From a virus (Duplodnaviria > Heunggongvirae > Uroviricota > Caudoviricetes), in IMG/VR virus record IMGVR_UViG_3300037400_002787, positions 64,001-96,646 of that record: a stretch of 32,646 bases of DNA; one strand, given 5' to 3'. Every line of letters begins with the position of its first letter. Position 1 is the first letter of the stretch. The translations under genes and the position numbers were made by a program. The notes below the pieces were generated by a model that saw nothing but the letters and a program-made list of their open reading frames with translations, ran no database searches and had not been told where the DNA came from. Of the stretch, positions 1 to 9,535 are shown one piece after another.

Positions 1-7
1 TTCCGAG

Positions 8-3000
8 ATGCTTGCAAATCCCGAGGTTGTTAATACAGCGGCTGGCGAAATTCCGGTGCAGACCACCGTTCAGAAGGCTATAGTCGAAAATCTTGACCAG
101 CAGGCGGCACAGGGAAACCAGCAGGCCGGAGAGGCTCTAAGTGAACTCAAGGAGAATGTTGATGACGGGACAATTACTCAGGAAGCACATAATGTAGAGA
201 ATCCGTTGGTAGAGCAGCCGCAGCAGCCTGCAGATGTTCAGATGGCGAGTTCCGACGGCTCGTTTGTTCACACTTTGTCACCAGAAGAATCGGCGGTCAT
301 ACAGGCAAATCCAGAAAAGAGGGAAGTCCTGCAGCAGATAGTTGATGCCTCGGGCAAGTATGTCGATTCCACGGATGAAGCCGAAAAAGAGCAGATAGCC
401 GAAGGCATTAGGATGCTATATCAGATGTTCTATGGGGAAAAGAATCCGAAGAACGCATCGGGCGAAGAACCTAAGGAGAAAGAAACGGTAAAAGTTCTTG
501 AGTTCGAGGCAACCGATGATAAGGGTAACAAATCTACAGGAATCATAGAGGCGGATTCTAGGATAGATGCCATTAGAAAACTAATGAAGAAGGGTCTGAA
601 GCCAACCAATCTTAGCAATGAACCCTTTGATGTAAATAAGGACGATTTATCAACTTCAACACCACCACCGTCTCCACCCACACCGCCTACACCTCCCGAA
701 GGAGGAGGCGGAGAATCAGGCGGCCCAAACCCGCCAAACAATCCGCCTAACCCGCCAGACAACCCGCCGGATGAAGACGATGACGATAGCCGTAGTACAC
801 TGCCCCCCGCACCTTCCGACGAGGAATTCCGTGTTGGCGAGAACAAGTATAAGGTTGGCGGAATAACCTACACTGATGTGTCGGGCAAAGGTCTATTCCG
901 CACGGCCCTGGCTTCCTTTATGGCGGGTCTTCGCGGCGAGGGGGTTATTACTGGCTGGGATAGAATTAATGGCACATGGGATGCAATGAAGAGGTCTGAA
1001 AAAGGGGAGATGGTGCGAGATGGCATTGCTTCTGCCCTTTGCCGCGATACTATTGCAAATTATGCGAATAAGGACGGTTTGTCTGATGATGCAAAAATGG
1101 AGATAGCGGTCATTCAGGATATGATGAATCAGGCCGACACACCCGAAGCCCAAATGAAGGCAATAAAGCAATTCCAGAAATGGAAGGAGACTTACTCAAA
1201 GGAACTTGGCGAACTAGAAAAGCCAATCCCTGGACAGACATTCAAGCCGTTGCCTAACGATTATAAGGGAACAAAACCGCCGGTTTCTATCCTAAAGAAA
1301 TCGGAGGGATTTGAAGCGGACAAGGAGTTTGGAGACAAGGTGGCCGCTGGTCTGCAGGAACGGCTAGGGATTCTAGGATTTCAAATAGATGAACTTGTTG
1401 GAGTTAGTGTTGGTCCTTCTGCCACAACGGTAAAGTTCAAGATTCCGCCTACATTCGATATGACGGCGGCAAACAGCAAAAAGACCCGTGAAGCCCTTAA
1501 GGGAGCAATCGGCACGGAGGTGTCGAATGTGGAGTATGCCAAGGGCGAAAAGGATGTAATGTCGATAACCGTCACAAACCCAGAGATGCGTAATGTGTCC
1601 TTCTCGGATGTGATTAATAGTCAGAAGTGGAAAACCTTTGCAAAGAAAGCCGCGCTTCCAATCCCTGTTGGACGTGATTCCTCTGGCGAAGAAACAATGC
1701 TTGATGCTGCTACTATGCCGCAGACCATTGTAACCGGTGCTACGGGTTCCGGAAAGTCTGTCTTCATCTCCGCCGCTATAAACGGAATTGAAATGGAGAA
1801 GACCCCAGATGAAGCCCGTATAGTCCTTCTAGACCCAAAGAACGAATTTAAGATTCAGGACGGTTCTCCGCACCTACTCTTCCCAAGGGCTGGTGGAGAC
1901 CCCGACAAAGCCAAGGCTAGTAAGGATATGGCCGATGTTCTGGATTCCTTGGTTGCAATAATGAACGATAGGGTAACGAAGATAGGAGGCGTCATAGAGG
2001 GATTCAACCCGTCCAAGAACGAATTCAAGGGTGCCGCAGAACACTCAATCAAGCAGTATAATGAGGCTCACCCTGATGATAAGATGCCTCATATCCTCTT
2101 GGTGTTCGACGAAATAGCCAATGCCCGAGACAATGCAACAGCCGCAGACAAAGCCAGAATTGACGTCGCCCTACAGAAACTGACGGCTGTGGGCCGTTCT
2201 GTTGGCGTGAACTGTCTCCTTGCGACCCAGAGAGACGATGTTGGCTCTATCCCGGGAATCATTCAGGCTAACTGCCCAGGCCGCGTCACCTTCAAGGCTT
2301 CGCCAACCGATGCAAAGGCATCGCAGGAAGCCAAGGCGCTTGCCGGCAACGGAGACTACATTCTAACGGACAAAGCCGGGAACAAGACCCGCGGAAGAGG
2401 ATGTTTCATTTCGCCCGAAGAGGAAATGGCTATACCTTCCTACTACCGCGACCATATGGCTGGCGGTGATAATCCGGCAGAACCAACCCTTCCGAAGGAG
2501 TACACAGACGGTATAGTTCAGGCTGTAGAAAAGGGTGTAAACCTGTCTGTAGAGGCTATGGAAGGACTAGAGGATGCTTTCAAGGCGGCAGTCCCTAATG
2601 GGTGGACGGTAACTAAGGAGAAAGTTGACGGCAAGGAATATTGGAAAGCCTCCCCTCCAAAGCCTACTAGAGTTGATGTCAAGGAAGCAAAAAAGCCAGA
2701 GGCGGACAAAGCAAAGGGCGAAAAGCCAAAGGGACTTAACCTCAAGTCGAGACAAGAAGCCATTGAAAGCATCAAGGCGATGAAAGACGAAGCGATTTCA
2801 AAGGCTGATGCCGACTATGAGAAGGACGGAAATCTCGATAAATACGAGAAGGCGCTACAGAAGATAGGACAGGAAGAGCAGCGGCATATGGCTATCGTCA
2901 ACACTAGATTCCCCGAAATGATAGAAAACGGAGATGAGACGGATGATGACGAGGGGCAAGAGAATCCGTTGGAACAACCCGATGTGAGCAACACTGAATC

Positions 3001-3766
3001 ATCGGAAGACGATGGTGATACTCCCGCCGCTATGATGAAAGATGTTGAGGCACAACTCAAAGCAGAAAAAGAGCGCATAGACAAGGCTCTCTCAAAGCCG
3101 ACTCTCAAACTTAGGGATAGGCGCAAACTTAGGCAAGAAAAAGCCGCTCTACAGAAGAGATTCGACGATGCCAAGGCTAAGTTCAAGGCGGGCGGTACAG
3201 CAGACGAAATCCTGAACATCTTTGAGCCCGAGGAAAAAAAGGAAGAACCAGAGAAAATCGAGACCGCTCCGCAGTCTTCTGATGAAGATGTTCAGGTAGA
3301 TGCGGAAACCGTTGCCGCAAACGAGCAGGATGCGAAAAACGAGAAGTTGAGGAATTCTGTTCCGCCACAGAAGGGATATTCAGAGAAGACGATTGCAGGC
3401 TCTGCACCAGCGAAGAATAGGTTTGGGGTTATTTTCGTCAACGACCCCAAGACCGGTTCGCAGGGAAGGCTAATCCCCGACCCCAAGAATCCCAAGGGCT
3501 ACAAGTTCCAGAAGGACATCGACACCACGCACCCCGAATACAAGGGGTATATAAAGAAGCCCGATGGGACATGGGAACTGTCTCCTGAGGCCAAGAAGGT
3601 TGAAGAGGAGACGAGGCTAGACCGAAAGCAGTCAAGAGATGCGAAGAAAAGAGAAGAGGCACTAAAGCGGTTCAACAGGGCGAGGTTTGGCCACGACGAA
3701 GCTCCCGACAACAAGACAATCGTTGCCAATGCAGTGATGGAAGCACTTAAACTTGTGGAAGGATAG
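8..3766 (+). CDS. Giant acidic multidomain protein with FtsK/SpoIIIE motor (alpha + ATPase beta domains); may start upstream of the window
   Basis: FtsK-alpha-like segment (ERLGILG..VSVGPSATTVKFK..ITVTNPEMRNVSF, ~1340-1603), Walker A TGATGSGKS (~1733-1759), VLLDPK, Walker B LLVFDE (~2093-2113), GRSVGVNCLLATQR. Pro-rich and acidic linkers flank it. No transmembrane segment or gamma domain visible. Codons at 2-7 are sense, so the frame is open to the window edge. Confidence 0.85.
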   Translation: MLANPEVVNTAAGEIPVQTTVQKAIVENLDQQAAQGNQQAGEALSELKENVDDGTITQEAHNVENPLVEQPQQPADVQMASSDGSFVHTLSPEESAVIQANPEKREVLQQIVDASGKYVDSTDEAEKEQIAEGIRMLYQMFYGEKNPKNASGEEPKEKETVKVLEFEATDDKGNKSTGIIEADSRIDAIRKLMKKGLKPTNLSNEPFDVNKDDLSTSTPPPSPPTPPTPPEGGGGESGGPNPPNNPPNPPDNPPDEDDDDSRSTLPPAPSDEEFRVGENKYKVGGITYTDVSGKGLFRTALASFMAGLRGEGVITGWDRINGTWDAMKRSEKGEMVRDGIASALCRDTIANYANKDGLSDDAKMEIAVIQDMMNQADTPEAQMKAIKQFQKWKETYSKELGELEKPIPGQTFKPLPNDYKGTKPPVSILKKSEGFEADKEFGDKVAAGLQERLGILGFQIDELVGVSVGPSATTVKFKIPPTFDMTAANSKKTREALKGAIGTEVSNVEYAKGEKDVMSITVTNPEMRNVSFSDVINSQKWKTFAKKAALPIPVGRDSSGEETMLDAATMPQTIVTGATGSGKSVFISAAINGIEMEKTPDEARIVLLDPKNEFKIQDGSPHLLFPRAGGDPDKAKASKDMADVLDSLVAIMNDRVTKIGGVIEGFNPSKNEFKGAAEHSIKQYNEAHPDDKMPHILLVFDEIANARDNATAADKARIDVALQKLTAVGRSVGVNCLLATQRDDVGSIPGIIQANCPGRVTFKASPTDAKASQEAKALAGNGDYILTDKAGNKTRGRGCFISPEEEMAIPSYYRDHMAGGDNPAEPTLPKEYTDGIVQAVEKGVNLSVEAMEGLEDAFKAAVPNGWTVTKEKVDGKEYWKASPPKPTRVDVKEAKKPEADKAKGEKPKGLNLKSRQEAIESIKAMKDEAISKADADYEKDGNLDKYEKALQKIGQEEQRHMAIVNTRFPEMIENGDETDDDEGQENPLEQPDVSNTESSEDDGDTPAAMMKDVEAQLKAEKERIDKALSKPTLKLRDRRKLRQEKAALQKRFDDAKAKFKAGGTADEILNIFEPEEKKEEPEKIETAPQSSDEDVQVDAETVAANEQDAKNEKLRNSVPPQKGYSEKTIAGSAPAKNRFGVIFVNDPKTGSQGRLIPDPKNPKGYKFQKDIDTTHPEYKGYIKKPDGTWELSPEAKKVEEETRLDRKQSRDAKKREEALKRFNRARFGHDEAPDNKTIVANAVMEALKLVEG

Positions 3767-3771
3767 GAAAT

Positions 3772-4407
3772 ATGAACTTCTTTGATTTTCAAGAAAAGCT
3801 CTATAGCGGCAAGCCTGCAATGGACGATGCCGTTGGAGAAGCCGCCGCGCAGATAGCACGTCAAGACCAGCCGAAAGCACCTCATGGGCAGGAATCTTCC
3901 GCAAAGGTCATTGCGGAGTTTTCCGACAAAGACCACATACTCTCTGCGGAAGAACTCATTGAACACCGCAAGCACTGCCGCGCAAAGCCCGGAAACTGCC
4001 CTTTCGAAAAGGCGGTAGACGAGGCGGACGACATAACCCCCAATGAAATCAAGGTGACGAAGCAGGATGTGTTCAACCGACTTGCCGCCGTTCTCACACA
4101 GTTGTTCCAGGTGGCAAAGAACCTGGCAAAGCCCGCCATAGCAGAACCCGAAGCGGTAGAGGAGGCTTCCGCCCCAGCGGACAAACCACAAGCAACGACT
4201 TCTGATTCAATGCCGAAAACGGCACAGGACGAAGCCCCCGCACCCGATGAAACAAGCACTGATGCCAAGATAGTGGCGGAAATCATCGAGGGCGGAATCG
4301 AGAAGATGGTTGAATTGGCGAAGGGGAAAGGATGTATGGTTGATATGGACGAAAAGAACACCAAATACATCGTGAAAGGCCCCGACAAAGCAGAGCAGGA
4401 AGGGTAG
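3772..4407 (+). CDS. Hypothetical acidic protein, possibly an internal head protein
   Basis: Starts 5 nt after the previous stop with GGA upstream; contains HRKHCRAKPGNCPF and QDEAP motifs; lies directly before the protease gene. Confidence 0.7.
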   Translation: MNFFDFQEKLYSGKPAMDDAVGEAAAQIARQDQPKAPHGQESSAKVIAEFSDKDHILSAEELIEHRKHCRAKPGNCPFEKAVDEADDITPNEIKVTKQDVFNRLAAVLTQLFQVAKNLAKPAIAEPEAVEEASAPADKPQATTSDSMPKTAQDEAPAPDETSTDAKIVAEIIEGGIEKMVELAKGKGCMVDMDEKNTKYIVKGPDKAEQEG

Positions 4408-7044: not shown

Positions 7045-8139
7045 ATGGCTTTCACTGAATGCAAATTCCGTATGCCTAAGGTCAAGGTCGAGGGTTTCGC
7101 TCTCGATGAGGCCCCAGACAACCTCCGCACGATGGAGAACCTCGCTCTCATGGGCGTGTCCTTCAACGAGAAGTCCAGCGGAGTCAAGTACGTGATGGAC
7201 GCGATGCCTACTCAGGGCGTCACCAACCCAACCGCTACGGTCCCCGTGCAGTTCCTCCAGCACTGGATGAACAAGATTATCACGGTCGTGACCCAGGCTA
7301 CGACCGCCGATGAATTCCTCGGCCGCTCCACCTATGGTGAGTGGTATCAGGAGAGCATCGTCCTCCGTATCCGCGAGCTCACGGGCTCCGTCCGTCCTTA
7401 CGGCGACCATGCCCAGGCCCCTCTGGCACGGTACAACTACAACCAGGAAGACCGCACCATCGTCCGCTTCGCTCAGGGTATCCTCACGGGTGCTCTCGAA
7501 GAGGCTCGTCTTGCGGCCATCGGCCAGAAGTCTTCCGCTTACGAGTCTGACCGCGCGGCTCTCGGCCTCGCCTTCAAGCTCAATACGAATGCGGTTGCCT
7601 TCTTCGGCTACAACCTCGGTTACAACAAGACCTTCGGTATCCTCAACGATCCGAACCTTGCGCCTTATGTCGCTGTTCCCGAGAACAAGAACGGAGACAC
7701 GGAGTGGGCGAAGAAGAACTTCTACGAGATTGTCCGCGACCTCAACACGGCCGTCGCCGAACTCCAGAAGCAGTGCGCTGGTAACTTCATTCCGTCCAAG
7801 CATGCCTTCAAACTCGGCATCGCCCTCGGATGCGACCAGTTCCTCAACCAGGTCAACCAGTACGGCATCTCCGTCCGCAAGTACATCTCCGACACTTGGC
7901 CGAAGTGCGACCTCGTGGTTATCCCCGAGTTCGACAATGCTCTCGCCGGTGACAACGTTATGTACCTCAAACTCGACGAGCTCGCGGGTTCGCCGGTTGC
8001 GGAGCAGATCGTTCCTGCGGCGGTTCGCCTCGTTGGTTCGGTGCCGCGTGCAAGCGGTTTGTACGAGCTCTATTCGGATGCCACTGCCGGTTGCTTCGTG
8101 GAGCAGCCCCTCGGCGTGGTCCGTTTCTTTGGTATATAA
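7045..8139 (+). CDS. Major capsid protein (DUF2184-like, HK97 fold)
   Basis: 364 aa; NAVAFFGY..TFGILNDPNL..EWAKKNFYEIVRDL..SDATAGCFVEQPLGVVRFFGI typical of this family; AGGAG SD; strongest codon bias in the window; followed by a terminator. Confidence 0.9.
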   Translation: MAFTECKFRMPKVKVEGFALDEAPDNLRTMENLALMGVSFNEKSSGVKYVMDAMPTQGVTNPTATVPVQFLQHWMNKIITVVTQATTADEFLGRSTYGEWYQESIVLRIRELTGSVRPYGDHAQAPLARYNYNQEDRTIVRFAQGILTGALEEARLAAIGQKSSAYESDRAALGLAFKLNTNAVAFFGYNLGYNKTFGILNDPNLAPYVAVPENKNGDTEWAKKNFYEIVRDLNTAVAELQKQCAGNFIPSKHAFKLGIALGCDQFLNQVNQYGISVRKYISDTWPKCDLVVIPEFDNALAGDNVMYLKLDELAGSPVAEQIVPAAVRLVGSVPRASGLYELYSDATAGCFVEQPLGVVRFFGI

Positions 8140-8263: not shown

Positions 8264-9535
8264 ATGTATAGAGGTATAAAAGTTAGGATATATCCGACCA
8301 AGGAACAAGAGGTTTACATTAATAAACTCTTGGGAAGTTGTCGATTTATCTATAACAAGTTCATAGATTTCTTCAATGATTTTTATAAAGAACATAGGAG
8401 GGGTGCATCTAGTAGAGAAGCATATCAATTTTATAAAAGGTTAAAAGAAGAATATGGTTTCTTAATGGAAGTCCATAGTAAGGTAATAAGTAATGAGAGA
8501 TTGATAGCTATACAAGCATGGGGGAACTTTTTCAAGGCGAAAAAGAAGCCTCCAAAAAAGAATGGTAAGTTGAATTTTGAAAAACCAGTATATCATATCA
8601 AGCATAGACATGATTCGTGTCTCTTTGATAAACAAGCATTTAGATATATTAAAGGTGATAGGATTTCATTAATCAAGAAACTATCTAATATTCTCTTTAG
8701 ATGCTCTAAACGAGATGCGAAATTCCTACGAGAAAATAATGAGAGTGTTCGTAGTGTAACTTTAAGGAGAACACCGAGTGGAAAATATATATGTTCAATA
8801 CTTGTAGAAGATACAAGAGAGATTAGAATGTCTCATAGTTCAAAAGAGATAGGTATTGATTTGGGAGTAAAGCATTTTGCAACATTGTCTGACGGAACTA
8901 AAATAGAGAATCCGAGGATAATCAAATCTTATATAGGAAAGATAAAAAGATTAGATAGAAAGTTGTCGAAATGCAAAAGACACTCTAGAAGATGGGAAAA
9001 GGCACGGATGCGATTAGCCAAAGCCTATGAAAAACTTAGTAATTGCAGGAAAGATTTCCATCATAAAGTATCATCTAAGTTAGTTAAAGAGTATGGAACG
9101 ATATGCATAGAGAATCTAGATGTAGCATACCTTTTAACCATCTGTGATGCAAATAAGGATGTAGCCGATGTAACTATGGCAGATTTCTTATATATGATAC
9201 GATACAAATGCGGGTGGTATGGAAGGTTACTAGGTGTAGTTGATAGGTTCTTCCCATCATCAAAGACATGTAATCATTGCGGAAATATAAATCGTGACTT
9301 AACCTTGGTAGAAAGAGAGTGGGTGTGTCCTAAATGTGGTAAACTTCTTGATAGAGATTTGAATGCTGCCATTAACATATTGAAGGATGGGAAAAAGCAT
9401 TTGGTAGGGCCGGGCTCGCCCGAACCGAACGCTCGTGGACAGGAGTGCATCAGAGACGATTGCCCGAAAGGGAAAGCGGAGGAGATGTCCTGGGCGAAGC
9501 GAGAAAAGAATGTGGAAGTGAACTTGTGTCACTAG
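8264..9535 (+). CDS. tnpB: IS200/IS605-family RNA-guided endonuclease TnpB
   Basis: N-terminal HTH (KVRIYPTKEQ..GSCRFIYN), RuvC-I GIDLGVKHFA, RuvC-II CIENL, Zn ribbon CNHCG..CPKCG, RuvC-III DRDLNAAINI; all three catalytic acidic residues present. Confidence 0.95.
   Translation: MYRGIKVRIYPTKEQEVYINKLLGSCRFIYNKFIDFFNDFYKEHRRGASSREAYQFYKRLKEEYGFLMEVHSKVISNERLIAIQAWGNFFKAKKKPPKKNGKLNFEKPVYHIKHRHDSCLFDKQAFRYIKGDRISLIKKLSNILFRCSKRDAKFLRENNESVRSVTLRRTPSGKYICSILVEDTREIRMSHSSKEIGIDLGVKHFATLSDGTKIENPRIIKSYIGKIKRLDRKLSKCKRHSRRWEKARMRLAKAYEKLSNCRKDFHHKVSSKLVKEYGTICIENLDVAYLLTICDANKDVADVTMADFLYMIRYKCGWYGRLLGVVDRFFPSSKTCNHCGNINRDLTLVEREWVCPKCGKLLDRDLNAAINILKDGKKHLVGPGSPEPNARGQECIRDDCPKGKAEEMSWAKREKNVEVNLCH

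Follow-up and report, generated by a model that had tools for sequence, protein, structure and literature searches.

A T2SSF_N-type domain as an optional cassette in the tether of a phage FtsK/SpoIIIE-like motor protein

Introduction

Why should the DNA pump of a tailed phage carry a segment that resembles a piece of the bacterial secretion and pilus machinery? The question is raised by a stretch of 32,646 nucleotides (hereafter the window) that corresponds to bases 64001-96646 of the 96,646-bp IMG/VR virus record IMGVR_UViG_3300037400_002787 (CheckV completeness 38%), and that opens within the gene of a giant FtsK/SpoIIIE-like protein. A preliminary description of the window had singled out a 40-residue segment of this protein that follows the pattern with which the platform proteins GspF (type II secretion) and PilC (type IV pili) begin, and had proposed a captured host module that could either dock the DNA motor on that machinery or mimic PilC and block it. 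Natural transfers of the platform N-domain onto other proteins are potential handles on its binding target, and in this case the domain is attached to a DNA pump that is soluble and belongs to a giant phage of the gut or rumen. Were the module to serve in docking, phage DNA handling would be linked to a host pilus or secretion machine; were it to serve as a decoy, the phage would have made an anti-pilus device of a new kind out of a part of that machine. Both outcomes would help to explain the FtsK-like proteins of tailed phages, for which no role was found in the literature searched. The domain belongs to a family already described in Pfam, and PF28597 has been assigned to these proteins by automated annotation; in the same literature we found neither a mention of T2SSF_N by name nor the T2SSF_N and FtsK_SpoIIIE architecture, its phage setting or its cassette-like mobility. 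Here we report the evidence for the identity of the segment, describe its carrier and its distribution, and weigh what it might do.

A platform-type N-domain in a phage protein

The 40 residues are the exact translation of window positions 494-613 on the plus strand, and they lie in a single long open reading frame (ORF) that extends beyond the 5' end of the window. Platform proteins begin with a signature that runs aromatic-x-A-x-D-x-x-G, G-x-I-E-A-x-S, A, L and G-L-x-P; the segment follows it throughout and keeps the IEADS turn. Scored as a 15-position pattern, 13 positions are identical and the other two conservative (L for F and F for Y), whereas the next-best of 68,241 windows in the six-frame ORFs of the 96.6-kb record matches only 6. 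Authentic enterobacterial GspF N-termini (n=71) match between 7 and 15 positions.

Profile searches gave significant matches in both directions. A hidden Markov model (HMM) built solely from the 71 enterobacterial GspF N-termini, themselves gathered through a search with E. coli K-12 GspF, picked out the segment alone when run against all six-frame ORFs of the record (24.2 bits, E 4.9e-7; next 0.046), and an hhalign comparison of the module alignment with a 25-sequence alignment of GspF N-termini returned a probability of 97.3% and an E-value of 2.4e-11 over 40 columns. In the reverse direction, a profile of three phage modules was searched against 1.84 billion protein representatives and retrieved P0133, P0137, P0141 and P0142, whose residues 3-42 are classic GspF/PilC-type N-termini (E 4.5e-5 to 4e-4), as well as the tandem-copy proteins P0136 and P0138. 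Seven other matches of this search were set aside: four are repeat proteins that fit only the ATD-x-x-GN hairpin, one of which (P0128) has immunoglobulin-like and HYR repeat domains according to Pfam, and three are short repetitive ORFs that fit only an MKKGLRP stretch and, judged by eye, are apparently translated DNA repeats.

The same assignment is found in the precomputed Pfam annotation of the protein database, in which PF28597 is placed on the window's protein (P0003), on two relatives (P0004 and P0005) and on GspF proteins. Among GspF fragments the family is present if the N-terminus is kept and absent if the fragment starts past about residue 97. Both the atlas and the gene table of P0005 give PF28597 the name T2SSF_N, and in that table the order is T2SSF_N and then FtsK_SpoIIIE; the hit on P0005 is unmarked, which corresponds to an E-value of at most 1e-5. 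Several other searches gave no family assignment: the segment alone matched no family in our local copies of Pfam and PHROGs, the former of which does not contain the PF28597 model, a sequence search of the PDB returned chance-level matches only, a word-index search found just the two close relatives, and a feature-based protein atlas gave no usable match.

Structure prediction agrees with the profiles. AlphaFold2 folds the module alone into a beta-beta-alpha-beta unit (strands 4-11, 17-24 and 40-45, helix 27-36) with a mean predicted local distance difference test score (pLDDT) of 86.5, and when folded together with the upstream region the module forms a separate unit behind a disordered stretch. 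In a shape search of the ESM Atlas, the listed family sets of the 99 nearest models are all T2SSF with T2SSF_N, T2SSF_N alone, or HofC-type T2SSF, and the neighbours superpose on the module over 46-48 residues with template modelling (TM) scores, by query, of 0.85-0.87 and a root mean square deviation of 1.1-1.4 Å. We are confident that the predicted fold matches that of the platform N-domain. Searches of the PDB with Foldseek and with VIA-align in its wide setting found no recognisable platform N-domain and only generic small beta-beta-alpha-beta proteins with Z scores of 5.6 or below, among them YkzG, T7 Gp2 and p56. Gp2 and YkzG are also the only structural neighbours that Guilvout et al. 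report for the N-domain of PulF (PMC10790770).

Could a short hairpin and helix have come to resemble the motif independently of any shared ancestor? The domain has only some 40 residues, a length at which fold scores carry little weight, and one part of the motif, ATD-x-x-GN, fits repeat proteins as well. A chance or convergent resemblance is nonetheless highly improbable, and in our view already largely refuted, given profile matches that are significant in both directions, a Pfam hit on P0005 at an E-value of at most 1e-5, and 13 of the 15 pattern positions where no other window of the genome matches more than 6. The resemblance noted in the preliminary description thus stands on both sequence matches and predicted fold, and the segment is very probably a genuine T2SSF_N domain, the N-domain of about 45 residues with which GspF/PilC platform proteins begin. 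That it was captured from a host is no more than plausible: the closest bacterial relatives found share only about 38-42% identity with the module. GspF itself, moreover, need not be the donor, because the module also occurs as a stand-alone protein and in other architectures.

The carrier is a soluble FtsK/SpoIIIE-like protein

The gene that bears the module occupies window positions 1-3766 (+) and, according to the ORF listing and its translation, begins 482 nt upstream of the window at L001:7519. With the upstream DNA added, the complete ORF (L001:7519-11766) gives P0003, of 1,415 codons. The likely start is M9 (codon at L001:7543), where three close relatives begin, and the product has about 1,410 residues; there are full-length relatives of 1,266 to 1,966 amino acids. 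Within P0003 the 40 residues are numbered 326-365, and the domain, which is assigned on the evidence of Pfam PF28597, the GspF HMM, hhalign, AlphaFold and the ESM Atlas, spans residues 325-366 (window 491-616, +).

At its N-terminus P0003 carries a 23-residue peptide (residues 9-31, L001:7543-7611) that is near-invariant in eight relatives, while the 200 residues that follow have strongly diverged; this peptide could be a capsid-targeting or processing signal.

The module sits between two conserved regions of the protein. Upstream lies a three-helix domain (window 248-436, +; P0003 244-306) that is conserved in eight relatives and predicted with a pLDDT of 83-88 (helices within model residues 12-62), followed by a Lys/Glu-rich flexible linker (window 437-490, +) with a pLDDT below 50 at model residues 65-79 and a length that varies among relatives. 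Downstream, a linker of about 60 residues that is Pro-rich, Gly-rich and acidic in composition (window 635-814, +) is hypervariable in both length and sequence. The internal position and flexible flanks attributed to the segment in the preliminary description are thereby borne out. Beyond the linker comes a family-specific domain (window 815-1213, +; P0003 433-565) that is conserved in all aligned relatives and has no Pfam match, and then the P-loop ATPase domain (window 1613-2233, +; P0002 residues 538-744), which matches PF01580 (FtsK_SpoIIIE) with 72.4 bits (cut-off 24) and an E-value of 4.8e-20. A Walker A motif (GATGSGKS) and a Walker B motif (LLVFDE) can be read directly in the translation, and the carrier matches PHROG 1358 with an E-value of 2.5e-39. 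This family and PHROG 3551, which the domain also matches, hold the FtsK/SpoIIIE-like proteins of large tailed phages, such as orf098 of Bacillus phage Bc431v3, and belong to the same ATPase family.

The carrier has no membrane segment. Its highest Kyte-Doolittle mean over 19 residues is 1.08, compared to 2.9 in E. coli GspF, and by the same measure the three transmembrane segments of GspF/PilC platform proteins are lacking. Pfam finds no match to PF00482 (T2SSF) in the carrier or elsewhere in the 96.6-kb record. Because it has neither a T2SSF domain nor membrane helices, the carrier is a bearer of T2SSF_N and not a member of the GspF/PilC family.

It likewise differs from cellular FtsK and SpoIIIE. 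Both have the FtsK_SpoIIIE P-loop ATPase and the sequence of an N-terminal localisation region, a long Pro-rich linker and a motor. The cellular proteins, however, possess 4TM, alpha and gamma domains; PF13491 (4TM), PF17854 (alpha) and PF09397 (the KOPS-reading gamma domain) were not detected in the carrier by Pfam, although a diverged alpha domain could be overlooked in this way, whereas cellular FtsK hits carry all three. The phage protein instead adds long N- and C-terminal regions, and its gene, unlike that of cellular FtsK/SpoIIIE, sits among head genes.

An optional cassette in a variable tether

A search with the motor region retrieved about 39 phage-type relatives (E 0 to 3e-56) on contigs of up to 276 kb. 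According to the PF28597 annotation and our own HMMs, which agree, only P0003, P0004 and P0005 carry the module. In the alignment it appears as a clean presence/absence difference within the hypervariable linker, between the conserved helical domain and the Pro-rich tether; the flexible tether of this soluble phage motor protein thus holds it as an optional cassette. The insert is apparently confined to these three uncultured relatives. Searches of the INPHARED phage records by tblastn with the module, with the two modules of a further phage protein (P0144, see below) and with full-length P0144 gave no matches, and scans of IMG/VR with the same modules gave no further carriers, both at BLAST-level sensitivity.

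Other family members bear different material in this part of the protein. P0149 has a different, beta-rich insert of about 65 amino acids (residues ~317-382) at the same linker site, which we considered as a further T2SSF_N copy and rejected, since it is not recognisable as such; P0147 has an insert of about 200 residues near the site, and P0005 has an extra Cys-rich (CPKC...C) stretch directly after its module. This tether seems to be a hot spot at which modules are plugged in.

Comparison of the P0003 and P0005 genes reveals a mosaic. Third-codon-position identity is about 0.9 only at codons 300-386 and 477-540, and elsewhere it is saturated at 0.2-0.4, leaving two islands of about 90% nucleotide identity at window positions 416-676 and 947-1140. 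The first, delimited with a codon-aligned sliding window (416-676, +; P0003 codons ~300-386), encloses the module. Synonymous divergence (dS) in the module is 0.19, and the proportion of synonymous differences (pS) in the adjacent helical domain is 0.75. Because of this low divergence and high third-position identity within an otherwise saturated gene, the simplest reading of the alignment is that a cassette including the module was recently exchanged by recombination between otherwise diverged phage genes. An exchange of this kind suggests, in turn, a selectable and host-facing function.

The same data might be taken to describe a neutral passenger, that is, an insert carried by recombination into an insertion-tolerant linker without any selected function in the phage. 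Consistent with this, the module is present in just 3 of the 39 relatives, the surrounding region is full of indels and other inserts, and the low synonymous distance between the two carrier lineages means that long-term retention is not demonstrated. We nevertheless consider it rather improbable: the fold is predicted with confidence, the signature positions have been kept, the module occurs in two lineages whose motors are only 41% identical, and T2SSF_N recurs in an unrelated phage.

T2SSF_N outside platform proteins

That recurrence is found in P0144, a protein of 854 amino acids that has two T2SSF_N copies at the N-terminus, then low-complexity sequence rich in Gly, Ala and Arg, and no FtsK domain. 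Its gene (L004:10001-12565) lies between baseplate genes and gp32 on a 91-kb contig of a T4-like marine myovirus (TARA), and it is an independent phage case of T2SSF_N. P0137 is a stand-alone T2SSF_N protein of 99 amino acids from a bacterial metagenome-assembled genome, and the ESM Atlas also holds a cluster of stand-alone T2SSF_N proteins. P0144, P0137 and the two-copy P0138 share with the window's protein a T2SSF_N domain without T2SSF domains, but their carriers differ and none has the FtsK ATPase.

A close comparator is the N-domain of Klebsiella PulF (residues 1-54; PMC10790770). The phage module has in common with it the signature, the fold, a flexible linker and the weak structural neighbours Gp2 and YkzG. 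GspF/PilC proteins bear their copy at the N-terminus, before the T2SSF domains and membrane helices, whereas the phage copy is internal (residues 325-366 of ~1,410), phage-encoded and joined to the ATPase of a DNA pump. The N-domain of PulF moves as a unit on a flexible loop, and stability and oligomerisation of the protein are independent of it; its deletion nevertheless significantly lowers secretion and pilus assembly, and in Neisseria the loss of PilT suppresses a mutant of the N-domain (PMC10790770).

These comparisons also bring up a role that has nothing to do with pili or secretion, in which the module would be a general peripheral-membrane binder of anionic lipids or a binder of some other phage or host protein. 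In molecular dynamics simulations the N-domain region of PulF contacts anionic lipids (PMC10790770), the structural neighbours T7 Gp2 and YkzG bind RNA polymerase, T2SSF_N is found in varied architectures without T2SSF domains, and another member of the phage family carries, where the module would be, some 65 residues of other sequence. Such a role is unlikely, however, in that the module keeps the specific GspF/PilC signature and not the fold alone, and the PulF N-domain lacks the arginine through which Gp2 acts on RNA polymerase (PMC10790770).

What the cassette might do

We tentatively favour the reading that the module is an accessory adaptor by which the protein docks on the type IV pilus or type II secretion machine of the host. 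This reading is drawn by analogy and argued for by three features: the signature turn and core have been kept, the module occupies the position of the FtsK localisation region, and the carrier has no anchor. A targeting module, a Pro-rich linker and a motor together form a layout that parallels cellular FtsK. On its long flexible linkers the module would bind the host component, whichever it may be, that is the usual contact of the platform N-domain on the side of the pilus or secretion machine facing the cytoplasm. The DNA pump, which lacks an anchor and is presumably a hexamer, would in this way be brought to the machine at the inner membrane, with the module standing in for the membrane domain of cellular FtsK.

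Several observations weigh against an adaptor of this kind. No further gene for a pilus or for secretion occurs in the 96.6-kb record, itself only 38% complete: it contains no pilin N-methylation motif and no MshEN domain, and the only similarity to a secretion ATPase within it is of P-loop level and falls inside the FtsK domain itself. Fully 36 of the 39 relatives do without the module, including P0146, whose motor region is 92% identical, and the module is dispensable for the core role of the protein under any reading because of this. The dN/dS ratio of the module, with only 51 codons, is uninformative, and Guilvout et al. name no partner for the native N-domain (PMC10790770).

A decoy or inhibitor ranks next after docking and is, by analogy, possible though doubtful. 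Here the module would compete with the N-domain of the host platform for its partner and so reduce the activity of the pilus or secretion machine, which might for instance keep out superinfecting phages that depend on pili; it may act after proteolytic release from the giant protein. Small phage proteins that disable type IV pili are known: PfsE of Pf4 binds PilC (PMC8764522) and Aqs1 of DMS3 binds PilB (PMC13436744). Like the module in this role, these are phage-encoded and aimed at the platform or motor of the pilus; they differ in being small, dedicated and unrelated in sequence to the host machine, whereas the module is a homologue of a machine part inside a giant motor protein. Stand-alone T2SSF_N proteins and the two-copy P0144 without an FtsK domain, a polyvalent-type effector gene that adjoins the carrier gene, a prohead protease gene downstream, and the weakening of the native machine upon deletion of the N-domain (PMC10790770) all accord with interference. 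Yet an inhibitor needs no motor protein of 1,400 residues as its carrier, neither a processing site nor evidence of processing is known for the giant protein, and the missing partner of the native N-domain counts against competition as well; the native N-domain is, moreover, non-essential, and competition would weaken rather than block the machine.

Genomic context

The source phage is a myovirus, with genes for a tail sheath, a baseplate hub and a baseplate wedge. The gene order around the carrier is glycosyltransferase, sliding clamp, a 655-aa ART-PolyVal protein, the FtsK-like gene, a 211-aa protein, a 657-aa protein and the major head protein. The 657-aa protein, encoded downstream of the FtsK-like gene, matches head-maturation-protease families in PHROG. 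The upstream neighbour (L001:5542-7509, +) has an ART-PolyVal ADP-ribosyltransferase domain (E 1.8e-9); the domain is carried only by the product of this neighbouring gene and not by the FtsK-like protein. In a relative (L006) the equivalent upstream neighbour has 1,173 amino acids with MuF_C and ART-PolyVal domains. According to Iyer et al. (2017; PMC5512222), polyvalent proteins of this sort are effectors that travel in the phage head and are injected together with the DNA, which suggests that a head-packaged effector is encoded next to the FtsK-like gene.

Since its gene lies in the head block and adjoins that of the ART-PolyVal protein, it is conceivable, by analogy, that the FtsK-like protein is delivered together with the DNA. 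Taken further, docking might mean that the phage parks its FtsK-like pump at the host filament machine, where the pump, which may arrive packaged in the head, would pull in or handle the genome of about 250 kb. We regard this extension as very doubtful; if true, the phage would encode a motor for DNA import that is coupled to a filament machine of its host.

Two further genes of the region deserve mention. The 211-aa protein directly downstream of the carrier (window 3772-4407, +) has a sub-threshold match to TM1506/DUF1893 (24.2 bits, cut-off 27). Inside the head module, directly after the major head protein gene (window 7045-8139), lies a transposase gene of 423 aa (window 8264-9535, +; PHROG 506, E 5e-102), the closest genome match of which is from Acidobacteriota and only 26% identical.

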